Virus record (IMG/VR): IMGVR_UViG_3300023707_000001 | DNA: 44,186 bases | Reading direction: 5' to 3' (one strand) | DNA from: a virus | Lineage: Duplodnaviria > Heunggongvirae > Uroviricota > Caudoviricetes | Part shown: positions 14,659-43,715 of the stretch, in pieces | How the letters are laid out: each line of letters begins with the position of its first letter | Position numbering within the stretch: the stretch's first letter is position 1 | Notes under the pieces: generated by a model | The model's database searches: none | What the model saw: the letters and a program-made list of their open reading frames with translations, nothing else | Told to the model about the DNA's origin: nothing | Program-made: the position numbers and the translations under genes

Positions 14659-15381
14659 CTAGCTTGCTAGTTTCTCCAGAACTTCATTAAGCATATTGAT
14701 TCTTTCTGACGGCTCAGCCAATTTAAGCTTTGCTTCCAGTTCTTCAACCTTGGCTTTTAATGCCACGTTTTCTGCCTCTAAAACCTGGTTTTTCTTGTTT
14801 AAGAACCTCATACGGTCATCGATTTCGGCAACCTTAATCTCATCTTGCGCAAGTGCCTGCACCCACGACATGACCATATCCTGTTCCATTACAACGAATA
14901 CGCTGCCGGCAGGATTGCCTTCGCTGAAGCGTTCCGCCCGCGTAATCACGGCGCCCTCATCTTCATTAAAGGCAAACTTAAGATGCCAAAAATCCTGGTT
15001 TTTCTTCAATGCTTCCGTATGAAGTTTATTGAGCCATTCCCGCTTAATACTAAAGGACTTGCACCCACGAGCCCTTTCAGGCTCCTGAGTTTTCAGCTCC
15101 TCCATCAGGCGGTATGCTCCGATGACGATATTCTCGTCACCCTTTTCTTTGTTGGTAGCGCCGCTGTTAATAGTCATCCTTGATGACAGGATTTCTACAT
15201 TGCGGTCGTGATTGGCCTTCTCAAACCCGCTTCCCATACGCTTATCAGCCTTCTGGGAATGCCGACGCACGGGTGTGCGCCTTTTGGGTTCCTTGTAATT
15301 CATGCCATTTGAGCAGAAGAAACAACTGCTTCTGTCAGTAAGGCAATCGTCATAGCCATACTTACAACTTTCGTTACTCAA
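14659..15381 (-). CDS. PD-(D/E)xK Holliday-junction-resolvase-like nuclease with N-terminal Cys cluster and C-terminal coiled coil
   Basis: GSGFEK...NSGAT..KGD...EELKT...SFSIKREWLNKL. Confidence 0.6.
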   Translation of the reverse strand: MSNESCKYGYDDCLTDRSSCFFCSNGMNYKEPKRRTPVRRHSQKADKRMGSGFEKANHDRNVEILSSRMTINSGATNKEKGDENIVIGAYRLMEELKTQEPERARGCKSFSIKREWLNKLHTEALKKNQDFWHLKFAFNEDEGAVITRAERFSEGNPAGSVFVVMEQDMVMSWVQALAQDEIKVAEIDDRMRFLNKKNQVLEAENVALKAKVEELEAKLKLAEPSERINMLNEVLEKLAS

Positions 15382-15908
15382 GCTGCATCATCCTGTTCAT
15401 CTATATCGACTTTTTCAACGCCAGCCTTTTCCATCTCTTCGTTAAGCTCTTTTTCAGCCTTTTCGATTTCCGTGATTTCTGCTTCCGACATGTTTTCAAC
15501 GTCGCCGGTTACGCCATCCAGCATACTTACGAGCGTATCAAACTTGGTCGGATTAGCAATCATATCTTCCTTAAAGCGCTGTTTACCCTGCCATTTGAAT
15601 TCCGGGTCAACAGAACCGTCTTCCAGATGGAGAGAGAGCCATGCGCCACGGGCGTCAATGATTCCACGGTTAACGAGCTGCTGCAAGGTAGAGAAGTATT
15701 TCTCGATGCCCTGGCCATACTCAACGTAATAGATGAGATTAACGTACGGATTGCGGTCAATAACGCAGTGATTCTTTGTTACCCGAACCTTAATCTTAAG
15801 GCCCGTTTCTTTTGTAATCGGGTCAGAATCGTCCGGCGTAAGCTTGCTGAACTCCAGCGTCACCATGTTATTATAGCGAATTGCCTTGCCGCCGGCAATC
15901 ATATTAGG
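15378..15908 (-). CDS. recA: RecA exon 2
   Basis: PNMIAGGKAIRY...KVRVTKNH...YGQGI...GAW...KWQGK; joining to exon 1 gives MYGN|PNMIAGGKAIRY, matching RecA MFGNPETTTGGRALKF. Confidence 0.9.
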   Translation of the reverse strand, partial: PNMIAGGKAIRYNNMVTLEFSKLTPDDSDPITKETGLKIKVRVTKNHCVIDRNPYVNLIYYVEYGQGIEKYFSTLQQLVNRGIIDARGAWLSLHLEDGSVDPEFKWQGKQRFKEDMIANPTKFDTLVSMLDGVTGDVENMSEAEITEIEKAEKELNEEMEKAGVEKVDIDEQDDAA

Positions 15909-17499
15909 CTATCCCAATGTATATTTTCATATACCACAAAGCTGTGTTTGGGGGTGGACTATATCATCGCTCCGGGGGCTCACTCCCCCCATCATCACGC
16001 CTTGCACTTGGGCTACAGGAATTTCACCTGTGCCTACTCTACTCGCTTATCAACCCTGCCGATTCTCACGGCTCTTATGGATATATAGCTTTCGATAGTC
16101 TCTACACCTTCCTCGTATATCCTACGAGGCTTGGCACGGTATTGGCTGCTATCCATCTCTGGACCGTAGCGTCTCTTACGAAGCGTATTCGCGCATCTTT
16201 TGCCTTATATAACTTCTACCGTTAGCCCAACTTTATTGGACACCCTAGATTTCTAGGTTCACAAGGTTTTTGGAAACCCATAATATTGCTTAACTTTATC
16301 CTGCATTTTTCTAAAAATATACTTTTGAACGCTGCCTGGGTCATTGTCCAGATCACATTCTGCAATCTGAACTACCTCATACCCCATCTTTTCTGCACTT
16401 AGCCTCTTCTTCTCATCGTTATCTCTTACGGAATCGGTCGAGTGCCAATATGTACCTTGGACTTCAACAAGTAAGAAGAAGCCGAGGTCATAGTCATAAC
16501 GCCAGCCATTAATCTCTTGCTGTGGGATGAAGCTAAAATGCAAGTTTGATAAAATTTCTTCAAACTTAATTTCGGCTGTAGAACGATAGAACCATGTATT
16601 TCTTTTCGTTTTCCACCCAGAACCAAAGATTTGGCGACGTGCCTTCGAGAACGATGCCTCAGACATTTTGTACTTAAGGGCAAGTGCTCTGTTGGATATA
16701 AAAGGATTCTTAAAGTCATCCTGAAACTCTTGCGTTGAAGGAATTATATATTCCCCATTTTCATGGCATAAAATATTATTGTCCTTCAAGAACTTTACAA
16801 GTGCCAATACAGAAACATTTATGTGTTCAGCAATTTCCAGTAAGGACACGCCCTTCTTCCCGCTATGGGACATTTGTTCTTTCACGGCGTTAATAACATA
16901 TTCCTGTTCATCCTTCTTCCATATTTTTCCTATACCATGGTTGATACATGGAGTTTTCTTAATCCCCATGATTCTTGCCTGTTTTAGGATATGGGATTTT
17001 GAACACTTAAAATGTTTTGCTATATCCTCTACCGTACATTTGTCAGACATGTACATTTTTCGTAGCTCAGTTAGCTTTTGCCGGCCCCACACATCACGGT
17101 TTCGGTAAACCCTCTCGTAATCTACGTTAATATTATACTGTGTCCTTAATACCCTTTCAAGTACAACTTTGTCTTTATGCACTTTTTTGGCTATTGTTCC
17201 AAATGCAACACCTTTGGATATAAGCTCCCTTATTGTATTAAGCTGTTCTAAGGTAAGAGTTTCTACTGTTAAATTGTTTGACTTAAGGACTCTCGCAACA
17301 GTGCTCCTGCCCCTATTTATCGTTGCGGCAATCCTTGATATGTTCATGCCGCTACTTGCCAATTCTTTTATGCGCTCAATTTCGTTATCTGTTATTCTTT
17401 TCTTAGACTTCATAATACCACTACTTTCAAAAATTAAGATTAAGTGCTATTAAGTTCTAAGTATATTTTTGCAATCAGGCTTTGTTAAGCTGCCAGTTG
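15909..17499 (-). mobile_element. Group I intron in recA (1591 nt) carrying a homing endonuclease
   Basis: 5' exon ends in U and intron ends in G. Core motifs GAAGGUGUAGAGACUA and GAUAUAGUCC (P7). Internal guide sequence (IGS) AUAUUAUGG-GUUUCCA at 16271-16286 pairs with both exons. Splicing restores the frame. Confidence 0.92.
16259..17413 (-). CDS. Intron-encoded endonuclease: tandem HTH repeats + Vsr/DUF559-like (EDxHD-type) domain
   Basis: About five HTH-like repeats, then STAEIKFEEIL...YDY...VEVQGTYWH...RDNDEKK...GYEVVQI. Confidence 0.8.
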   Translation of the reverse strand: MKSKKRITDNEIERIKELASSGMNISRIAATINRGRSTVARVLKSNNLTVETLTLEQLNTIRELISKGVAFGTIAKKVHKDKVVLERVLRTQYNINVDYERVYRNRDVWGRQKLTELRKMYMSDKCTVEDIAKHFKCSKSHILKQARIMGIKKTPCINHGIGKIWKKDEQEYVINAVKEQMSHSGKKGVSLLEIAEHINVSVLALVKFLKDNNILCHENGEYIIPSTQEFQDDFKNPFISNRALALKYKMSEASFSKARRQIFGSGWKTKRNTWFYRSTAEIKFEEILSNLHFSFIPQQEINGWRYDYDLGFFLLVEVQGTYWHSTDSVRDNDEKKRLSAEKMGYEVVQIAECDLDNDPGSVQKYIFRKMQDKVKQYYGFPKTL

Positions 17500-18213
17500 A
17501 TTTCCATACATTCCCGCATTCATATTTGTCGTGTAGTGTTGGACAAGTACCATGGTTGTATTGCGCTGTGCGCACAATGGCACTGCTTTTTTCATAAATT
17601 TGGAATTAAAGCGTGCCTGAACAGCCATCGTGTCATCTTCAAAGTTCTTCGTGGCTTCCGCCATCGGAACCAGCATTTTCAGCGAGTTAATGACGCAAAT
17701 ATCGACATCCGTCTCACGAATTGCTTTCATAATCAAGTTGCCGATAGCCTCTGCACCAAATACCTGTTTTTTGGTATCCGGGTCTCTCGTGGACAAGCAA
17801 TAAAAGCGGTCAAGGTCAATATGATAGAGACTCGATGCTTTTTCTACGTCCAAAGAGTCCTCGGATTCTACCCACAGAGCAATGAAGTTGGGGTCCAGCT
17901 GCATCTGATAGCCGATAGTTGCAAGGCAGAAACCAGTTTTACCTGTGTCTTCACCGCCGGAAATCAAGATGTTGCGCCCAACCGCAAGGCCACCGCCCAG
18001 AGCTTCGTTTACTGCCGCAACAGGAGTTGCGAAAAACTTAAACGTCATTCGGTCCATTACAGCCTTGCTTTTTGTTGGTCGACCAGCAATGACTCCGCAT
18101 TTCGCACTAGCCTCTTCAAAAAGGGCGTCCAGGTTTTGCTGGCGCTTGGCCAGACTCTCCCTTTTTGTTGTTGCTTCCGGTGCTTCCATAACTTTTGTCT
18201 TCTTTTTTGGCAT
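17500..18213 (-). CDS. recA: RecA exon 1 (spliced protein about 414 aa)
   Basis: NEALGGGLAVGR, GGEDTGKT Walker A, VESEDSLD, AVQARFNSKFM; GAGGAG SD before MPKKK. Confidence 0.9.
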
Positions 18214-18751
18214 AAACGCACTCCTCATATAATTTTGTTAAATCTTTTTTCGTACAAATCAAGCTTGTACCATCTACGCGAGCCTCAACGTCCCACACCT
18301 TTAACCACTCCACATATTCAGGAATGTCTTCCTGATAGGCCCAGGAAAGGTCGATAACAACGCTGTCATCTTCCTGTAATGTCCCATGCCATTTGACAAG
18401 GAAAAGCATGAAGTTAGGAGCATAAAGGTAAGAGAATACATTGTGAAGTGATACTGCATGCTCACGTCCACGTTGCATCTTCTTGATGAGTGCAGGCAGA
18501 GCTGTTTTAACCTCACCGGGAACAATGCGTACACCATTTTTAATTGGTTTTACATGCACCCAGCTATTCTCTCGAAGGCTAAACAACACTCGCTGTTTTT
18601 CATACTCAGGGAAGGTTAAGTCCACGCAGTATCCTGGCTTCAATTCGCCACAGAGATAAATCCAGGTTGCCAAAACGGAACGTTTAAATTCACGAGTTTG
18701 CATGTTTCTCTTGGAAGTATCTTCTTTTATTACAAACCTGCGATAAGCCAA
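18116..18751 (-). CDS. Hypothetical protein, possibly a degenerate LAGLIDADG-fold protein
   Basis: TTG start after AAAGGGGTGA; two segments resemble LAGLIDADG_2 helices without acidic residues; 3' end overlaps the recA start by 98 nt. Confidence 0.45.
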   Translation of the reverse strand: MAYRRFVIKEDTSKRNMQTREFKRSVLATWIYLCGELKPGYCVDLTFPEYEKQRVLFSLRENSWVHVKPIKNGVRIVPGEVKTALPALIKKMQRGREHAVSLHNVFSYLYAPNFMLFLVKWHGTLQEDDSVVIDLSWAYQEDIPEYVEWLKVWDVEARVDGTSLICTKKDLTKLYEECVYAKKEDKSYGSTGSNNKKGESGQAPAKPGRPF

Positions 18752-19115: not shown

Positions 19116-21602
19116 TTAAGCTGCCGATTCTTCGATGGTTTCAGCTTCCTCGGACGGAGCCAGGGTGATGGATGCAATTTCTGCACCATCTGCCAAGTTA
19201 ATTGCCTTTACTCCGTGTCCGCTACGGCTCTGGGTGCTGATATCCTTGACCGGCGTGCGGATAATCATGTCATTTGTCGTAACAACAAATAAGGTTTCAT
19301 CCTCATCCGCTTTTACAACAGCCATGGCATGTCCGCTCTTTGGCGTCGGTTTGTAGATTGTAATACCCTTACCACCGCGCCCTTTCTTCTGCGGAATGTC
19401 CGTCATACTGCAGCGCTTACAGAGCCCCTTATCCGATACGACAAGCAGGGTATCGTCGCTTGCTGTGGATACGGCAGAGATTATATAATCATCTTCCGTC
19501 TTAAACCGCATAGCGATATTCCCCTTGGCCGTACGGCTGGTAAGCGGAATATTCTCCATCCCCGTATGAACAGCAAAGCCGTTTCGAGAAACCAGAACTA
19601 CACTTCCTTCGCCGGTTGTCAAAATGACACTTGCAAGGCCGTCATCATCATTGAGCGTAATGACCTTTAATCCGTTCTTGCGGATAGTCATATTCTCCAG
19701 ACTGATACGTTTTGCAAGCCCATTCTTCGTAACCATAAGAAGCTGATGGGTTGTATCGCCATGTGCAATCGCAAATACTTTTACAACCTTTTCGCCATCC
19801 TCAAAGGTGACATAGTTATTAAGGTACTTGCCCATAGCTGCCTTAGAGACAATGGGGATGTGGTATGCAGGAACCGTGTAGGCCTTGCCCTTATCCGTAA
19901 CGATAACAATATCGTCCTTGTTGCTCATATAGAGAACTTCTTCGACAAAATCATCTTCGCGGAGCTTAATCCCATTGCCTTTACCACCGCGGCTCTGCTG
20001 GCCGTAATCCTTGGAACGGATTGCCTTGACCATACCGTTGTGCGTGTAGAACATTACAATGTTCTCGTCCTCGATAAGGTCACGGTCATTCACCTCATTG
20101 CACAGCTGTGCAATTTCTGTGCGTCTTGCGTCGCCTTTGAAATAACCTCTGGCAATATAGTTGTCAATATCCTGAACAAAGTCCTGTATCAGTGCGACCT
20201 TATTGCTGAGAAGGTGTTTGCCGGCCAAGATTTTCTTCTTCAGTTCTTCTGCCTCCTCAATCAATGCGTTCACATCAAATGAATTCAAAGAACCAAGCTG
20301 GCGAGCATAAAGACCCTTTGCCTGCGCTTCGGTAAAGTCAAATTTCGACATAAGATTGGTGATGGTTTCCTCACGGTCCTTAGAACCACGAATAACCTTA
20401 ATCACTTCATCAATTCGAGAATTGGCATTGATATACCCCTGCACAAGCTCTAAACGCTTTGCATGCTGTTCCATATCAAAACGGATAACCCGCACTTTAG
20501 ACTGGAGCTGGCTTTTAATGTATAGCTCGATTATCTGTAGCAGAGACAACCCTTCAACCGGGCGGCCGTCCACCAGCATAACCGAATTAATGGAAAAAGT
20601 ACTTTCCATTTTTGTCTGCTTAAAAATGTTATTAAGGACGATGTCGGGATTACCGTTTTTCTTCAATTCGATACAGATTGCGATTTTCCCTTTTTCGGAC
20701 CTATCGACTACGTCTGCCACATTATCCTTAAACACTTTGTCAGCCTCTTCATTATACACCTTTTTCCCAAGGTCTTCAACCAAAGATTTTTTGTTGATAC
20801 CGTATGGGATTTCGGTGAATATGATGGTTGTGCGCCCTCCGGATTCCTTGATTTCGTACTTGCCGCGAATACGAATACTCCCCTTACCTGTTCGGTAAGC
20901 CTTACGGGCTTCTTCCGGATTAACAATTACACCTCCTGTCGGAAAGTCCGGTGCTTTCACGATGTTAATAACATCGTCTAATTTTGGCTGCTCGCCCTTA
21001 ACTACGCAACCAAGCACATGTTTGATTGCTGCAAAAATATCGCCGGCGTAATGAGGCGCCATGGACGACGCCATACCGGTTGCGATACCGGTTGTTCCAC
21101 AGCAGAGAGCATACGGGAAAATTCCGGGCAGGTTTTTTGGTTCTTTTTCGTGCCCATCAAAGTTCGGAACCATATCCACCGCATTCTTGTCAAGCCCTTC
21201 CAGCATGGATTCACCAATTTTGGAGAGCTTGCATTCCGTATATCTCATTGCAGCGGGTGGGTCTCCATCTATGGAGCCACAATTGCCCTGAAACGTAATC
21301 ATCGGATATCTTTTGGTCCAGGGTTCCGCAAGGCCAACTAATGCGTCATAGGCGCTCTGGTCACCATGAGGATTGTATTTACCAATTACATCACCGACTA
21401 CGCGGGCACATTTCTTGGGCACCGCTGAGTTTTTAAGCCCCATCTCATACATAGAATAGAGCGTATATCGTTGTGACGGTTTTAATCCGTCCTGCACCTT
21501 AGCCAAAGCGCGGGAGAGGATAACCTCTTCCGCGTAAGTAAGGTACAAAGATTGAACAAGTTCTTCCGCACGAACATCAACAATTCTGTTATTTTCACTC
21601 AT
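19116..21602 (-). CDS. gyrA: DNA gyrase subunit A
   Basis: QDGLKPSQR, GKYNPHGD, AAMRYTE (catalytic Tyr), PDFPTGG, GyrA-box QSRGGKG, beta-pinwheel repeats, acidic tail. Confidence 0.95.
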   Translation of the reverse strand: MSENNRIVDVRAEELVQSLYLTYAEEVILSRALAKVQDGLKPSQRYTLYSMYEMGLKNSAVPKKCARVVGDVIGKYNPHGDQSAYDALVGLAEPWTKRYPMITFQGNCGSIDGDPPAAMRYTECKLSKIGESMLEGLDKNAVDMVPNFDGHEKEPKNLPGIFPYALCCGTTGIATGMASSMAPHYAGDIFAAIKHVLGCVVKGEQPKLDDVINIVKAPDFPTGGVIVNPEEARKAYRTGKGSIRIRGKYEIKESGGRTTIIFTEIPYGINKKSLVEDLGKKVYNEEADKVFKDNVADVVDRSEKGKIAICIELKKNGNPDIVLNNIFKQTKMESTFSINSVMLVDGRPVEGLSLLQIIELYIKSQLQSKVRVIRFDMEQHAKRLELVQGYINANSRIDEVIKVIRGSKDREETITNLMSKFDFTEAQAKGLYARQLGSLNSFDVNALIEEAEELKKKILAGKHLLSNKVALIQDFVQDIDNYIARGYFKGDARRTEIAQLCNEVNDRDLIEDENIVMFYTHNGMVKAIRSKDYGQQSRGGKGNGIKLREDDFVEEVLYMSNKDDIVIVTDKGKAYTVPAYHIPIVSKAAMGKYLNNYVTFEDGEKVVKVFAIAHGDTTHQLLMVTKNGLAKRISLENMTIRKNGLKVITLNDDDGLASVILTTGEGSVVLVSRNGFAVHTGMENIPLTSRTAKGNIAMRFKTEDDYIISAVSTASDDTLLVVSDKGLCKRCSMTDIPQKKGRGGKGITIYKPTPKSGHAMAVVKADEDETLFVVTTNDMIIRTPVKDISTQSRSGHGVKAINLADGAEIASITLAPSEEAETIEESAA

Positions 21603-23200: not shown

Positions 23201-24318
23201 CATTATGTTCACGGAGTTCGCTACTCTCCGCAGCTTTTAAAAGCATCTCTGGCTCTCACCAGAAGTTCAGACTATATCTTCGTTCAAGGATGGCTAGTCC
23301 TATCATCACGCCTTCCATTTTGATTTAAGGGGTTTTCACCCACCCGCTCGGGCCCTACTCCTGTTGGTGCGGTCGAATCCACACCCCAATGGGGATAGTC
23401 GTTGAACCTTTTACTTTAACTTACATATCCTAATTCGGATTCTTTTTGTTTTCTTACTGCAATAGCAAGCTCTAATGCGTTTGGATATTTCTTGGTGGAA
23501 AATTTTTTGGAGTGAACCTTTCCGTCATTTTCCATCCATGATGCCCGGATATATTCCGCACCATTTCTGCCAATCTCTTTTGAGATTCCATTGCACCCAA
23601 ACTTATTAGTTTTTCTTGGCGCAGAATTGCGCTTGTTTATCGAAGTCGTTACAACTCGCAAATTACTAAGTTGGTCATCAAGGCCATTCCTGTTAATGTG
23701 ATCGACAACTTTCTCGACATCTTCTTTCTTAAGCCCTAACAAAAATCTGTGAAGCTTCCCATACTTATCCGATGCGGCATAGTATGTTCTTGAATTTGTC
23801 GGTATCTCTATAAACCATTTTGCTTGTTGTACTTCTTCAATCTTGTCTTTATCAAACAAAACCTTGCATTCTTTCTGTAGCTTTGCGCTCCATACAAGCA
23901 TTTCCGCATGGTCTTCTTTTTCGATAATATAGTTTTGCAGTTTCTTTCTCTTCTCGAGAGACTGTTTAGCAATTTTCTCTGCAATAGTTCCATATTTACT
24001 GATTGTGTAGTTGTATTGTTTACTATCAACACATGTCTGAAAACCTTTTCCCGTTTTCCGTACACATTCTAATTTTGCTGTCACGTTTTCCTCCTTCCTT
24101 TGGAGGTATGTAAGTAAAAGTAACTTGGCTGCGTGGTTGCCCATACTTATCTCTTGCCTTTTTACCGTACCCGGCTAATTACTCCGGCCATCATGTCTGT
24201 CACCAGCATGACTTGGTAGCTAAGAGCTCTTAGGGATTAGAGCCTCCGCCAAGAGGCCATTTTTTCGTTCCCGCAGTTAAAAAGATTTTAGAACGGCATG
24301 GGGTTATGCTGCCTGTTC
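23201..24318 (-). mobile_element. Group I intron gyrB-I2 (1118 nt)
   Basis: P1 AGAACGGU/GCCGUUCU (8 bp, G-U at the splice site); P10 CCCAU/AUGGG; AACUGCGGGAA...ACGCAGCCAAG; AAGGUUCAACGACUA and GAAGAUAUAGUCUG; terminal G. Confidence 0.93.
23416..24084 (-). CDS. Intron-encoded HNH homing endonuclease with AP2-like domain
   Basis: LHRFLL...VDHINRNGLD..SNLR..T.SINKRN followed by AP2-like GISK...RASW...KKFS...LAIAVR; GTG start after AAGGAGG. Confidence 0.88.
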   Translation of the reverse strand: MTAKLECVRKTGKGFQTCVDSKQYNYTISKYGTIAEKIAKQSLEKRKKLQNYIIEKEDHAEMLVWSAKLQKECKVLFDKDKIEEVQQAKWFIEIPTNSRTYYAASDKYGKLHRFLLGLKKEDVEKVVDHINRNGLDDQLSNLRVVTTSINKRNSAPRKTNKFGCNGISKEIGRNGAEYIRASWMENDGKVHSKKFSTKKYPNALELAIAVRKQKESELGYVS

Positions 24319-24369: not shown

Positions 24370-25911
24370 CAGTATGTTATCGTCAGGCTTTTTATCCTGA
24401 CTTCTATGCCATTACGACATAGCTCGGCGTACCTATTCATGCAATATAAAGTCATGACACGAAGCGGACTCTTGGGAACATTATATTCTCAAACGAGTTT
24501 CAGTTCCTACGCTCTGCCCCTGACTAAGACTTTACTCTTAGCCTTCGGTTCGGATTACGGATGCCTCCGCTTCCCCGCTTAATTCCGCTTTAATTATCTA
24601 CATTCTTCCATGACTGTTGAATGTAGACGGCAAAATTCTAATGCTTTTTCATACTTTCTTGGTAAATAATATTCAGTATCTCCATAAAGCCACTTTAAAA
24701 TCTTATATATTTTTGTTTTATCGACAGTTGTTATATTAAAGATTGCGCCGTTTGAATATGGGGCATCAAAAGTCATACCGACTTCTTGCAGAACTTTCTC
24801 CCTGATATATTTGACCATTTCAAGAGAGGAGCCGATGCCAATTTCCCATCTTCGTCTATATCCTTCTGTATTTCGAGTATAACGTGATACCCATCCATCA
24901 CCATCAAAAAAGCCGCGGATATATGCTTTGACATACTCGTCTGGAATATTGCTTGATGGCTTTTCGTTGGTTTGTTTGTTGGGAAATACATTATGGGACA
25001 TCAGATCATGTTCCATTCCGTGCAACACCATATGTAAGCCACATATTTCATATCTTTTATCTAGTGTCGATAAGTGTTGTTTTCTTTCATATATAGGATG
25101 TGTAGCAGAAAGAGCCTTTTTGAGTCTATGAAGCTGGTCGTAATCCCTAATTGCTAATGCAATAGCTAAAACACTAGAATCGCCATGCATAAATACAGAG
25201 CCATCAGCTGTAATGAATCCTAACCAATATGCTTTTTCTTCAGTATCAATTGCTTTGAAGAATGACTCATTAAGTGTATGCGGCTCATATTTGTAGGTCT
25301 TTACCCCGCCAACGTAGCTCGTCCCCATTTTTGTTTTGACGAGAACATTTTCATGTAACTTTACTCCTGCCTGTTTTAACACCTTATTAAGCACATGCGG
25401 AGTTACATTATATTTTTCCGCACATTCTCTCACGGACATTAACTCATTGGCCTCATATTCCGGAATGGCAGCGCGAGCTTTTTCGCGTTCCTTTTCCCAT
25501 TCATCTGTCTTATCCAAATTTACATTGTGCTCTTTTAGATACTTGTATGCAGTTGTCTTAGATAGGCCAAAGATTTTTGCACATTTTATGGGCGACAGTT
25601 CATTCTTATTTTTCAAATAGAAATTAACAAACTCTTCTCCATCTTTTTTGTGCTTTTTATTTGTCCTTAATTCGTAAACGCCTGCTGCATGCAAGTGTTT
25701 AGTTAAAGTCGCTGCCTTAATTCCGTATCTTTCTGCACAATCCTTTATGAGAATGTCTTTGTCAGTATTAAAACACTTTACTGCTTCTTGAATTTTTTCC
25801 TGAATATATTTATTTGCCATGCGTAGACCTTACCTTTTTTTGTTTATTTTTATCTACGCACGAATTACCAAGCGATGTTCGCATTAACACCGTTCATTAG
25901 AATTTATTTTT
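24370..25911 (-). mobile_element. Group I intron gyrB-I1 (1542 nt)
   Basis: Exon ends GGU and intron ends ACUG. P3 AAGCGGA/UCCGCUU; P7 GCGUA/UACGC. IGS GCCGUC (24626-24631) pairs with GGCGGU; adjacent CAUUAGAAUU pairs with the intron 5' end. Confidence 0.88.
24594..25820 (-). CDS. Intron-encoded double-motif LAGLIDADG endonuclease with N-terminal HTH repeats
   Basis: KAYWLGFITADGSV and YIRGFFDGDGWV motifs; three HTH-like repeats in the first about 150 aa. Confidence 0.9.
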   Translation of the reverse strand: MANKYIQEKIQEAVKCFNTDKDILIKDCAERYGIKAATLTKHLHAAGVYELRTNKKHKKDGEEFVNFYLKNKNELSPIKCAKIFGLSKTTAYKYLKEHNVNLDKTDEWEKEREKARAAIPEYEANELMSVRECAEKYNVTPHVLNKVLKQAGVKLHENVLVKTKMGTSYVGGVKTYKYEPHTLNESFFKAIDTEEKAYWLGFITADGSVFMHGDSSVLAIALAIRDYDQLHRLKKALSATHPIYERKQHLSTLDKRYEICGLHMVLHGMEHDLMSHNVFPNKQTNEKPSSNIPDEYVKAYIRGFFDGDGWVSRYTRNTEGYRRRWEIGIGSSLEMVKYIREKVLQEVGMTFDAPYSNGAIFNITTVDKTKIYKILKWLYGDTEYYLPRKYEKALEFCRLHSTVMEECR

Positions 25912-28503: not shown

Positions 28504-29886
28504 TTATGCTGCTGTTGCATGTACATATTCTACAGACAGCTTCTTTGTTTTTACGGCTTCTTCGGTAAGACGAAGAATCGGCTTGGTTCCTTCATTGGCC
28601 TGCTCGCTGATTTGCGGCAGGTCATACATGGTATCCAGCAGAATCCCCTCGATAATCGTACGAAGCGAACGCGCACCTGTACCGGTCTTAATTGCTCTTC
28701 GTGCAATCTCTCGCAGAGCTTCACGGTCAGGTCTGAGTTTGCAGCCATCCATATCGAATAATACGGCAAATTGCTTTACAATGGCGTTCTTCGGTTCGGT
28801 AAGGATACGAACCAAGTCATCTTCCTTCAACTGGTGCAGTTTACACATAATAGGAAGTCGGCCAAGCATTTCCGGAATGATACCATATTCCTTCATGTCA
28901 TCCGGCGTAACTTCTTCGATAAGGCGGTTGAAGCGATCTGCTTCATCGTTGAGCTCATCAAGACCAAGTTCGTCTTTGTGCGTATAGCCAAAGCCATTAT
29001 CGGTCTCAATCCGTTTGGAAATAATCTTATCGATTCCTTCAAATGCGCCACCACACACAAACAGGATGTTTGTGGTATCTACTTCGATAGTCGGGGCGTC
29101 AGGATGCTTACGGTTACCCTGCGTGAAGTGTACTTTTGTACCTTCTACGATTTTCAGCAGGGCCTGCTGTACGCCTTCGTGTCCGGGGTCAGCAGATGTG
29201 GAGCGATTTGTGCCAGACTTGCGGGCAATCTTATCGAATTCGTCAAGGAAAATAATTCCCCGCTCAGTCTTTTCGCGGTCTTTCCCTGCTTCCTCCCACA
29301 ACTGGCGGACACAGGTTTCCGGGTCGGAACCAACGTATCCGGACTGGGTTAACGTACTGGTATCGATTACGGTAAAAGGAACGCCAAGATAAAGTGCAAT
29401 CGCTTTTAATATTGCCGTTTTACCAACGCCGGTCGGTCCGACCATAAGAATGTTACTCTTATCAAGCTGGGTGAGCCCTTCTGCCTTCTGACCGGTTTTC
29501 AACTCCTTGTACTTCTGCGCTTCAAAGAACGCAAGGCGTTTGTAGTGGTTATAAACAGCCACGGAAAGAATCTTCTTTGCTCCGTCCTGGCCAATAATGT
29601 ACTTGTCAAGATGGGCCTTAATCTTTGCAGGAGATTCGTTGGACATCACCTCGAAAAGACGGCTGGCGATATCTTTCTGTACCTGTAATCTGTTTGCCTT
29701 AATCTGTTCGGCCTCCAAATTACTCATGCCGTTATTTTCATAACGCTGTTTTGACGCTGCCATGGCCAACATCTTCTGTGCACAAGAAAAGCAAAGAGCC
29801 GTGCCTGTTTCGGGGTCATGGAACATCATTTCATTTTCCAATTCCTCGTCCGGTATCTCTTTGCCGCAAGAACTACATTTAATCAT
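28504..29886 (-). CDS. clpX: ClpX AAA+ unfoldase
   Basis: C4 zinc-binding domain, YIIGQDGAKKILSVAVYNHYKR, GPTGVGKT, GYVG pore loop, LDEFDK, EGVQQALLK, RKH loop, GARSLR. Confidence 0.95.
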   Translation of the reverse strand: MIKCSSCGKEIPDEELENEMMFHDPETGTALCFSCAQKMLAMAASKQRYENNGMSNLEAEQIKANRLQVQKDIASRLFEVMSNESPAKIKAHLDKYIIGQDGAKKILSVAVYNHYKRLAFFEAQKYKELKTGQKAEGLTQLDKSNILMVGPTGVGKTAILKAIALYLGVPFTVIDTSTLTQSGYVGSDPETCVRQLWEEAGKDREKTERGIIFLDEFDKIARKSGTNRSTSADPGHEGVQQALLKIVEGTKVHFTQGNRKHPDAPTIEVDTTNILFVCGGAFEGIDKIISKRIETDNGFGYTHKDELGLDELNDEADRFNRLIEEVTPDDMKEYGIIPEMLGRLPIMCKLHQLKEDDLVRILTEPKNAIVKQFAVLFDMDGCKLRPDREALREIARRAIKTGTGARSLRTIIEGILLDTMYDLPQISEQANEGTKPILRLTEEAVKTKKLSVEYVHATAA

Positions 29887-29903
29887 TTTTCGTTTCACCT
29901 CCT

Positions 29904-30476
29904 TTAAGCTACCGATTTTTCAGTATTCGGGGTCCAGATTTTACGCTTCTTATTGCCGACGATTTCGTCGATAATGCCGTATTCGAGTGCTTCCTCTGCC
30001 GTCATCCAGCGGTCGCGGAAGGTATCTTCCTTATACTCTTCTACGGTCTTTCCGCAGTTTTCTGCAATCATCTTTGCCAGCTCGTCATTAAGACGCTCCG
30101 TTTCCCGCAGGGAGATAAGCATGTCCTGAATATTGCCCTGCGCACCGCTTGATGCCTGATGAATCATCACGCGGGAATGCGGAAGTGCCATGCGCTTAGC
30201 TCCGCAGGAAAGAATTGCTGCACCCATGCTTGCGCACATATGCGTATTGATGGTAAATACCATGCTTTTCAGGCTGTTCATCGTGTCGATAATGGAGAGG
30301 CCTGCGCCGATTTCACCACCCGGGCTGTTAATATACAGCATGATTGGCTTTCTGCCTTCATCATCGAGCGCCTGAAGTTCACTACATACCTCTGCAGCCA
30401 TAGCGCTGTTAATGTCCGTGTCAATACGCACGATTCGATTATCGTATAGTTTTTCTTTTACTTTGATTAATACCAA
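29904..30476 (-). CDS. clpP: ClpP peptidase
   Basis: YINSPGG, CASMGA (Ser), MIHQ (His), RDRWM (Asp), EALEYGIID; TTG start after AAAGGGGG. Confidence 0.93.
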   Translation of the reverse strand: MVLIKVKEKLYDNRIVRIDTDINSAMAAEVCSELQALDDEGRKPIMLYINSPGGEIGAGLSIIDTMNSLKSMVFTINTHMCASMGAAILSCGAKRMALPHSRVMIHQASSGAQGNIQDMLISLRETERLNDELAKMIAENCGKTVEEYKEDTFRDRWMTAEEALEYGIIDEIVGNKKRKIWTPNTEKSVA

Positions 30477-30518
30477 AATTATTGCCCCCTTTATTGATGA
30501 ATTTTGAGTTGATAATAG

Positions 30519-30615
30519 CCCACCAAGAAAAGGTGGGATGAAGATAAAGCGCGCCAAAGGCGCAAGAAAAACAAGACAATGCACCCCGAAGGGGTGCGAA
30601 GGGCTCGAAGAGCCC
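30519..30615. promoter_or_regulatory. Four tandem short hairpins in the clpP leader
   Basis: CCCACC/GGTGGG, GCGCC/GGCGC, GCACCCC-GAA-GGGGTGC, GGGCTC-GAA-GAGCCC. Confidence 0.5.
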
Positions 30616-30622
30616 AACGGCC

Positions 30623-31171
30623 TCATTCTTCTTCGTTTTCCTTATTCTTTTTCGTTCGCTTCTTCGGCGGAGTAACGCCGGGGAGGAAGGATAAAGAGAA
30701 AAGGCGGAGGGATTTGGAAATCTGTATAGCAAGTTCCACGCTAATGGCATTGCGAAGCTTAGCGCTTTTTCTCGTGCCGTCATTTGCAATTTCCGTAATG
30801 CATCCGTCTATCTTGATGCAGCCTTTGATGCGGTCAGCCTCGTTCTCGATTGGATTGCCTTCCAGGTCTTTATCCGTATAAAAAATCAAGAGTGAATACC
30901 CTTTCTTTTTGGATAAGTCCTGAATAAGCATTTTCTGAGCGGTTTTTGTATTAAGGACATACAGTTTTTCAAATGTCTGGATGTCTACTTCTTCCGCTAC
31001 CTTACGCCAATATCCAAGAACAACCGTGGATTCTCCACAGGTATTGGCGTCAATTGCCTCAGAAAAGGTATCCCAATCGATAAGCTTTTCTACAGTTTCT
31101 TTTCCCTGAACATACTCTGTCTTTGGGCAGTTTTCTGCATCTGCCTTGTCAATTTTAAATACGTCGAACAT
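30623..31171 (-). CDS. Hypothetical protein
   Basis: 182-aa ORF after GAGGTAAGG. Confidence 0.7.
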   Translation of the reverse strand: MFDVFKIDKADAENCPKTEYVQGKETVEKLIDWDTFSEAIDANTCGESTVVLGYWRKVAEEVDIQTFEKLYVLNTKTAQKMLIQDLSKKKGYSLLIFYTDKDLEGNPIENEADRIKGCIKIDGCITEIANDGTRKSAKLRNAISVELAIQISKSLRLFSLSFLPGVTPPKKRTKKNKENEEE

Positions 31172-43244: not shown

Positions 43245-43715
43245 CTGCTACTTAAAACATAGACAAAAGTGTCTACATCAAGATGTTTCGCTACAATCTC
43301 ACGATTTGTAGTTCCTTGTTCATCGTGTATGCTTTCGCCGTTTTTACAAACAAGCTAATCGCAAGTTCTAGTACACTCCAAAGGCGTAAATTCCCGACTA
43401 GCCATCGGTACATATCGACAGTATCTTGTTTATGACATTCTGCCGATTACATCTAGTAGCTTTCTCCTTTCATAATATTTTTATTTTTGCGTATTGGCTC
43501 GCCAGCCTTGCTTGGTTCTCGCATTTACCACTGTCCAACGGCTACCATCAGGGTGCTATCCCGTAGTTAGACGGACTGTTTCAACCGCCTCTGGTTTATT
43601 TCCAGCCATTCCGACTGCTGTAAAGTCAGCACGAACTAACTCAATCGGTTTTTATTGAGTCTTTAGCATATATTGCTACACACTTTTACATATTTGAGTA
43701 TGTTTTTAGTTACTT
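43245..43715 (-). mobile_element. ORF-less remnant of a TnpB-type IS200/IS605-like element (ends approximate)
   Basis: Segment ATGTACCGATGGCTAGTCGGGAATTTACGCCTTTGGAGTG...TTTTAAGTAGCAG resembles, from memory, right ends of Firmicutes tnpB elements. Hairpin-rich left part with an orphan SD (GAAAGGAG) and no long ORF. Confidence 0.55.

Follow-up and report, generated by a model that had tools for sequence, protein, structure and literature searches.

The Leu-Ala-Ala read-through tail of a phage recA intron as a probable by-product of RNA constraint and shared descent

The recA gene of an uncultured phage is interrupted by a group I intron, and ribosomes translating the unspliced message would add four residues, Gln-Leu-Ala-Ala (QLAA), to a truncated RecA before meeting a stop codon. 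The window analysed here, 44,186 nucleotides in length, comprises bases 52705-96890 of a 206,782-bp IMG/VR virus record (IMGVR_UViG_3300023707_000001; completeness estimate 87%). On balance, the Leu-Ala-Ala end of this read-through tail appears to be mainly a by-product of constraints on the intron RNA and of shared descent, and one that is plausibly read as a degradation signal (degron). It is taken to be mainly a by-product because a long-range helix termed here the clamp, a conserved CAACU at the intron's 5' end and an in-frame stop together fix every tail base except those of one codon, GCA.

The recA intron and its read-through tail

The recA exons lie on the minus strand. Exon 1 (17501..18228, minus strand; last exon base T17500) encodes the RecA ATPase core up to the start of the DNA-binding loop L2, while exon 2 (15378..15908, minus strand) opens with PNMIAGGKAIRY (CCT AAT ATG at 15908) and closes with ...DEQDDAA and a stop. 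The open reading frame (ORF) that includes exon 1 (17485..18228, minus strand) matches the Pfam RecA profile at 1.1e-17 over profile positions 31-190 of 262, and has two candidate start codons: the ATG at 18228, or an MPKKK start a few codons further in. Aligned with E. coli RecA, exon 1 covers residues ~38-200, the alignment ending five residues before the junction, and exon 2 covers residues ~207-297; exon 2 is 42% identical to that of relatives. The 1591 bases between the exons (17499-15909) end in a G (15909). Once joined, the exons encode MYGN-PNMIAGG, which aligns without gaps with MFGN-PETTTGG of E. coli in loop L2, and about 80 homologous introns share this codon boundary. The 5' splice site is therefore placed after T17500, on the strength of the pairing between exon and guide, the gap-free RecA alignment, the relatives at the same boundary and the terminal G.

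Around the junction the minus strand reads ...ATG TAT GGA AAT / CAA CTG GCA GCT TAA, and the ORF ends ...NAGMYGNQLAA. The first-pass annotation had stated that the first five intron codons (17485..17499, minus strand) are in frame with exon 1 and yield a fragment ending GNQLAA; this is exactly what positions 17499-17485 encode. The product of unspliced mRNA is a 247-residue fragment, made up of 243 residues of RecA and QLAA.

The helix P1 is formed by the exon bases UGGAAAU, which pair at seven of seven positions with the guide GUUUCCA (16277-16271), with a U.G pair at the splice site. An adjacent P10 guide, AUAUUAUGG (16286-16278; both guides together 16271..16286, minus strand), pairs through AUAUUA-U-GG with the start of exon 2, CCUAAUAU. 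The P1 guide lies about 1.22 kb 3' of the splice site, which bears out the earlier statement that P1 has to close across about 1.2 kb. Both pairings covary with the exons in phage 0305phi8-36 (GGUGAU/GUCACC and CCAAA/UUUGG), as does P1 in a further locus, L012 (GGAAGU/GCUUCC), and the guide GGUUUCC, or a variant covarying with its exon, is common to all recA members of the family.

The ribozyme core, from AACCUUGUGAAC to the terminal G (15909..16268, minus strand), was delimited by homology to the introns of 0305phi8-36 and the B. cereus group. It shares blocks of 11-25 identical bases with the 0305phi8-36 intron, and over aligned positions is 89% identical to that intron and 84% identical to a B. 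cereus-group recA intron. The window intron is thus of a known kind, the group I intron that occupies the same site in Bacillus recA and in phage 0305phi8-36. No Rfam group I intron model matched the window at gathering score, or positions 15800-17600 at E values up to 10. This miss is attributed to model coverage (the 1.2-kb insert, and a subclass that is poorly covered) because the core is 84-89% identical to validated introns, and it was not counted against membership. Contigs assembled from three RNA-library runs and one DNA run held the unspliced form only and no exon joint, contigs being unable to show absence, splicing level or expression.

A long-range helix holding the stop codon

The second Ala codon, the stop and one further base form the sequence GCUUAAC (17484..17490, minus strand), the exact complement of GUUAAGC at 16288..16294 (minus strand; read from 16294 to 16288), which is situated within the last codons of an endonuclease gene and just 5' of the P10 and P1 guides. 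GUUAAGC occurs once on the minus strand of the intron, and not one of 500 control windows drawn from that intron matched the first 30 intron bases over 7 bp. A helix at the homologous place, built from different sequences, is found in nearly every lineage. It was identified by duplex prediction for each sequence separately, which replaced a MAFFT alignment of the 5' regions of introns lacking an internal ORF in which several rows had been misplaced in the helix. The window lineage has GCUUAAC/GUUAAGC and most Bacillaceae have CUUAAUC/GAUUAAG. The other pairs are UCUUAAUC/GAUUAAGA in L157 and L171, AAACUGCUUAA/UUAAGCAGUUU in L160, UUGCUUAAUUU/AAAUUAAGCAA in L144, GUAUUUGU/ACAAAUAC in 0305phi8-36, CUCUUUG/CAAAGAG in L067 and CGAUUUU/AAAAUCG in L061. 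The predicted folds of ORF-less relatives consist of P1, an internal loop and the clamp helix, with z-scores of -2.8 to -3.4. According to these models the helix is a clamp that closes the P1 loop, L1, whether that loop is 5 or 1200 bases long.

A further comparison is provided by a sister phage contig, L117 (Ga0256405_10074128, 2662 bp), which has the same intron without the endonuclease gene and with an L1 of 17 nucleotides. Its recA exons are 79-85% identical in bases to those of the window and its RecA ends in ..GDAA; it shows the state of the intron either before gain or after loss of the endonuclease gene. The same 15 bases are present at its 5' end. In its predicted fold the first base, C1, lengthens P1, and two further pairings, ACUG/UAGU and GCUUAA/UUAAGC, leave only A2 and GCA unpaired. 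CAACU is itself conserved across the recA intron family.

A clamp of the same design is found in a second, unrelated intron of the same phage, gyrB intron 1, where an in-frame UAA lies within AAUUCUAAUG, a perfect 10-bp complement of CAUUAGAAUU about 1.27 kb away (25895-25904 and 24634-24643, minus strand). As a separate observation, the last 12 codons of the recA intron's endonuclease gene (...KVKQYYGFPKTL, 16259-16294, minus strand) double as clamp strand, P10 guide, P1 guide and the start of AACCUUGUGAAC. Translation of the endonuclease and formation of P1 would for that reason compete for the same bases.

These features bear on how surprising the tail is. With a random codon model the probability of an Ala-Ala-stop tail is about 0.5%, and that of Leu-Ala-Ala about 0.05%. 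This is the wrong null for the window tail, because its Leu comes from the conserved CAACU, and its last Ala and its stop from the conserved helix. GCA is the sole free codon, and the probability of Ala there is about 1 in 15. The coincidence to be accounted for is consequently about 1 in 15, and not 1 in 2000.

The tails of related introns point in the same direction. Of the 56 different 5' ends recorded for recA introns, 33 yield a read-through product ending in VA, seven in AA, three in TA and two in VS, with CA, AL, IA, SA and AS once each; the remaining six have no tail, TAA or TGA being the first intron codon. Such an immediate stop is found at nine loci of the recA group, of four distinct intron types. 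The AA tails are QLAA (the window and L117), QLLAA, QNLAA, QQTIAA, QLKVAA and QLEVAA. An intron-borne degron tag is therefore not a property of the family, since VA is far commoner than AA and some members have no tail at all. The penultimate residues V, A, I and T correspond to GUU, GCU, AUU and ACU, exactly the codons that pair with a partner AGU. In L157 and L171 the change of the last residue from Ala to Ser is accompanied by a compensating G-to-A change in the partner strand, and L067 has replaced both clamp strands, its tail now ending AL. As the Ser and AL ends arose together with compensatory changes, it is in these cases the RNA that has been kept and not the peptide.

Tail lengths of 12, 15 or 18 nucleotides occur in relatives, always multiples of three, which indicates that several independent insertions or deletions kept the clamp stop in frame. 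This fits the role established for early in-frame stops in group I introns (PMC2504315; PMC3984707), which is to halt ribosomes (PMC3984707). The frame also limits what can be read from a count of GCNGCN-stop in the recA family, of which seven are in frame and none is out of frame: all seven sit at one homologous position, and the count reflects no more than the in-frame placement of the clamp stop, being uninformative about Ala-Ala.

About 22 related introns in other genes were read by hand. Most have immediate stops or assorted ends, and the two AA ends among them both derive from GC-rich hairpins containing GCUUAA, which shows that GC-rich stems of this kind yield Ala-Ala-stop. In seven introns of other genes (L027, L033, L046, L055, L028, L034 and L052) the upstream ORF was observed to extend into the ribozyme core, 36-38 bases beyond the point where the conserved AACCUUGUGAAC block begins, stopping at hairpins of the GCGGCUUAAGCC or GGCCGCUUAA type with ...CAA and ...WAA ends. 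An automated survey of 98 introns of IA2 type, selected by core pattern, was dropped: it contained many false 5' splice sites and missed the phage's own gyrB intron 2. The roughly 15 plausible short cases in this noisy survey included one AA end, which was exon-encoded, and they are not leaned on here.

In the mechanism proposed, the 15 bases would represent the 5' end of a group I intron at which RNA folding and the need for an early in-frame stop fix most positions. C1 would extend P1, and ACUG is predicted to be paired in the ORF-less sister. The 7-bp GCUUAAC/GUUAAGC clamp would close the endonuclease-bearing L1, bringing the guide to the splice site, while the UAA inside it would stay in frame and cause ribosomes to leave before entering the intron. 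The LAA end of the released fragment may then be read as a signal for the protease ClpXP, making the fragment short-lived. The first-pass annotation had named a requirement for GGCAGC in RNA folding, regardless of frame, as counting against its proposal, and this applies to part of the sequence: GCUUAAC is one strand of a covarying helix, and GCA is unpaired in the sister fold.

Possible readings of the Leu-Ala-Ala end

The phage itself encodes a candidate reader for such an end. An intact transfer-messenger RNA (tmRNA) gene lies elsewhere in its genome (136925-137323, complement; Rfam RF00023, 90.7 bits), for which ARAGORN gives the tag DEVEYRLAA, the last three residues of which are identical to those of the intron tail. 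A ClpX homologue of 464 residues ending ATAA (28504..29898, minus strand) matches E. coli ClpX at E 1.5e-97 and the Pfam family AAA_2, and adjoins a ClpP gene (29903..30626, minus strand; Pfam CLP_protease 4.6e-54). The phage ClpX keeps the GYVG pore-1 and RKH loops, with Ser in place of T199 and Pro in place of V202; its N-terminal 87 residues are unlike those of E. coli ClpX. In E. coli the terminal Ala-Ala carboxylate and the GYVG- and RKH-type loops are the key contacts, and GFP-YALAA is degraded while GFP-LAA is not (PMC7652416). A tag screen gave the consensus [L/F/Y/W]-[L/A/R]-L-A-A, with Ala-Ala alone or with polar neighbours being weak, and found that E. coli ClpXP clears FKLVA and YALAA to a similar extent (bioRxiv 10.1101/2024.01.29.576913).

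QLAA has the free C-terminal Ala-Ala expected of a ClpX C-motif-1 degron, with the preferred Leu before it. It is preceded by M-Y-G-N-Q at the start of loop L2, a segment that is probably flexible, and polar residues such as G-N-Q lower potency in the E. coli screens. Judged by the E. coli rules, ClpX would be expected to recognise QLAA moderately well, and better than the DDAA of mature RecA. Because the phage carries its own tmRNA (...YRLAA), ClpX and ClpP, the LAA end is likely to be a ClpXP signal, and the fragment is probably degraded through its tail and short-lived. It would also be reasonable to suppose that such a fragment is dominant-negative, and that the need to remove it is greater with the guide 1.2 kb away.

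The wider use of such ends in this phage was counted in a crude set of 287 ORFs covering the whole genome. AA is the commonest protein end, found in 18 of the 287 (about 1.5 expected, a roughly 12-fold excess), with 11 VA ends and 54 Ala ends in all. The AA-ending proteins include GyrA (...ESAA, 19116-21602, minus strand) and spliced RecA (...DDAA), and AA and VA ends are concentrated at genome positions ~51-90 kb, 144-164 kb and 183-196 kb. All four Ala codons are used, for which reason one shared DNA motif, GGCAGCTTAA, was ruled out as the cause of these genome-wide AA ends. In this phage an AA-stop end does not single out the faulty RecA product, given that mature RecA, GyrA and 16 other full-length proteins end in the same way. 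In L005, the only locus examined from the uncultured-phage and metagenome group with AA tails, none of about eight neighbouring genes ends in AA.

Several observations weigh against treating the tail as mainly a by-product. The conservation of CAAC is not accounted for, and RNA pairing does not account for GCA, the codon of the first Ala, which lies unpaired in the sister fold. Four intron types from uncultured phages and metagenomes retain AA despite in-frame insertions or deletions (QLAA, QLLAA, QLEVAA and QLKVAA). Furthermore, gyrB intron 2, which follows a 51-nucleotide micro-exon, has the read-through GAA CAG GCA GCA TAA (EQAA-stop; 24304..24318, minus strand), whose tail codons are unpaired in a 21-nucleotide P1 loop between the exon sequence AGAACGGU and the guide GCCGUUCU. 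Its CAG GCA GCA UAA C is identical at 11 of 13 bases to CUG GCA GCU UAA C of recA, in spite of unrelated cores and endonucleases; no homologue of it at the gyrB site was found among the loci of the survey of IA2-type introns. As gyrB intron 1 has a read-through ending KNKF-stop, two of the three intron tails in the window end in AA, the commonest protein end of this phage.

These points contribute to the most serious of the rival explanations, in which the intron's dual-coded 5' end was selected as a cis-encoded degron that marks RecA fragments for phage or host ClpXP, much as tmRNA-tagged products are marked. This is judged unlikely. In its favour are the phage's own tag DEVEYRLAA, its ClpP, and its ClpX, in which the GYVG and RKH loops are conserved; what ClpX recognises is chiefly a terminal Ala-Ala (PMC7652416), with a preference for Leu before it (bioRxiv 10.1101/2024.01.29.576913). 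The sole RNA-free codon reads Ala, and gyrB intron 2 has its EQAA tail. Many Bacillaceae tails are LVA or MVA, and FKLVA is a ClpXP substrate (bioRxiv 10.1101/2024.01.29.576913). With the guide 1.2 kb downstream, leading ribosomes would be expected to reach the stop before P1 can form. The identity of the 15 bases in L117, with exons only 79-85% identical, might also be taken as support, but 15 identical bases of 15 are expected about once in 10 cases at that divergence. RNA and descent already account for the last Ala, the stop and the Leu, and the family still includes introns that lack a tail or end in VS, AS, AL, TA or CA. In L157, L171 and L067 compensatory changes kept the RNA at the expense of the peptide, and the hand-read introns of other genes produced AA only twice, both times from GC-rich hairpins containing GCUUAA. 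Finally, gyrB intron 1 ends KNKF, and since mature RecA ends AA too, the mark does not set the faulty product apart. A broader form of the same idea, that the dual-coded 5' ends of the recA intron and gyrB intron 2 act as a quality-control tag, encoded in cis and independent of tmRNA, on truncated DNA-handling proteins, is somewhat more doubtful still.

It would be a pure coincidence without consequence if the tail were irrelevant, the fragment being either misfolded and cleared by general proteases or harmless. Truncation at loop L2 probably leaves a RecA core unable to fold, and Ala at the free codon is a 1-in-15 chance; nevertheless the tmRNA, ClpXP, the AA ends and the second intron tail make full irrelevance less likely, and this reading is highly improbable. 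The idea that in this phage-host pair Ala-Ala or Val-Ala before a stop speeds peptide release or ribosome recycling, with a quick exit freeing P1 and the clamp, is scarcely credible: the stop does sit inside a helix that would have to form for splicing, two of three intron stops share the style of ordinary gene ends, and the 18 AA, 11 VA and 54 Ala ends among 287 use all four Ala codons, but the distribution of AA and VA ends along the genome is uneven, with clusters in a few regions, which would not be expected of a general termination rule, and to our knowledge there is no published evidence that Ala-Ala improves termination.

The by-product reading, in which the end is nonetheless plausibly read as a degron, is accordingly preferred. 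It retains part of the first-pass proposal that the intron carries its own quality-control tag: LAA matches the end of the tmRNA tag, ClpX and ClpP are encoded and gyrB intron 2 has EQAA, while on the other side the clamp explains the bases and the tails of the family vary. Self-splicing introns in bacterial and phage genes are treated as near cost-free, yet ribosomes that arrive before splicing make truncated protein. Were introns to label such fragments for ClpXP, selfish elements would have a new means of reducing what they cost their host, and intron biology would be tied to ribosome rescue. As it is, Ala-Ala-stop arises for free where a GCU-UAA helix strand has a GC-rich neighbour, and surveys of Ala-Ala tails must control for RNA structure because in the recA family a covarying helix uses the last Ala codon and the stop as part of one of its strands.

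The intron family and known systems

Loop L1 of the window intron contains a homing endonuclease gene of 384 residues (16259..17413, minus strand), whose product has N-terminal helix-turn-helix domains and an EDxHD, Vsr-like nuclease domain. It matches Pfam HTH_38 at 1.3e-16 and REase_MTES_1575 with 26.7 bits, under the 38.2 cut-off, while its residues 278-366 match the catalytic domain of I-Bth0305I (PDB 3R3P) at E 1.2e-7. With this Vsr-like catalytic domain, the predicted protein is an EDxHD homing endonuclease of the I-Bth0305I kind. Elsewhere in the window, a RAGATH-18 RNA motif is present at 43312-43384 (minus strand; Rfam RF03064, 70.1 bits, E 3.8e-12).

Core-pattern searches returned 60 loci in viral contigs, 22 in metagenomes and 53 in bacterial genomes, the bacterial matches being chromosomal recA genes of Bacillaceae, the B. 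cereus group among them. The intron was observed in chromosomal recA of 53 species genomes (L125-L177), some copies having an endonuclease gene in L1 and others lacking one, from genera that include Anoxybacillus, Neobacillus, Priestia, Rossellomorea, Robertmurraya, Heyndrickxia and Fictibacillus. The 2008 survey had named the B. cereus group, and the range seen here is far wider. Among phages, the best relative of exon 1 is found in Bacillus phage 0305phi8-36, whose RecA gene is annotated as split by a mobile intron; the product of that intron, gp29, is I-Bth0305I (PMC3239194). Megablast of the locus against phage records gave no match, a search of viral contigs for related loci with RecA exon 1 gave no close relative, and the pattern ATGTWYGGAAATCAACT in viral contigs gave chiefly chance matches and no new recA introns.

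Much of the system has been described before: publications already cover the intron, its site, the endonuclease family, the location of the endonuclease gene within P1 and the early stop in frame. The B. anthracis recA intron self-splices, and the copy in B. cereus AH1134 has an endonuclease gene within P1 (PMC2504315). Known recA introns have an in-frame stop within the first 27 nucleotides (PMC2504315), and an endonuclease gene in P1 (PMC2504315; PMC3239194). In the literature no paper was found that proposes intron read-through tails as degrons. The present case adds the long-range clamp holding an in-frame stop, and the spread of the recA intron across many Bacillaceae genera.

The closest bacterial counterpart is the B. 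cereus-group recA intron of Tourasse and Kolsto 2008 (PMC2504315), which occupies the same site (..MFGN/PETT..), shares the guide GGUUUCC and is homologous in its core (84%). It too has an in-frame stop within 27 nucleotides, lying in a helix of the P1 loop, and an optional endonuclease gene in L1. It differs in its setting, the host here being an uncultured 207-kb gut phage, in its tail (QLQVA there, QLAA here) and in its clamp (CUUAAUC/GAUUAAG there, GCUUAAC/GUUAAGC here). The window core, moreover, contains extra peripheral insertions, measuring 372 nucleotides against 264. The recA intron of phage 0305phi8-36 (Taylor et al. 2011, PMC3239194) is inserted at the same site, GD/P there and GN/P here, and likewise has a long-range clamp and an endonuclease gene in L1 whose 3' end overlaps the guide and whose nuclease domain is homologous. 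Its tail, however, is WTRICA-stop and its clamp lies over other codons (GUAUUUGU), and I-Bth0305I has 266 residues, compared with the 384 of the window endonuclease and its extra helix-turn-helix domains.

Like the ssrA tag, the tail ends in Leu-Ala-Ala, natural ClpX C-motif-1 degrons having a terminal Ala-Ala, and a gene for a ClpX that has the recognition loops lies close by. Unlike the ssrA tag, it is four residues long, is encoded in cis by the intron and is added by normal termination, not by trans-translation. Similarly, the T4 td intron and other group I introns have a stop a few codons past the 5' splice site, which is thought to keep ribosomes out of the ribozyme (PMC3984707); here, by contrast, the stop belongs to a clamp across a 1.2-kb loop that carries the endonuclease gene, and it follows a short, degron-like tail.

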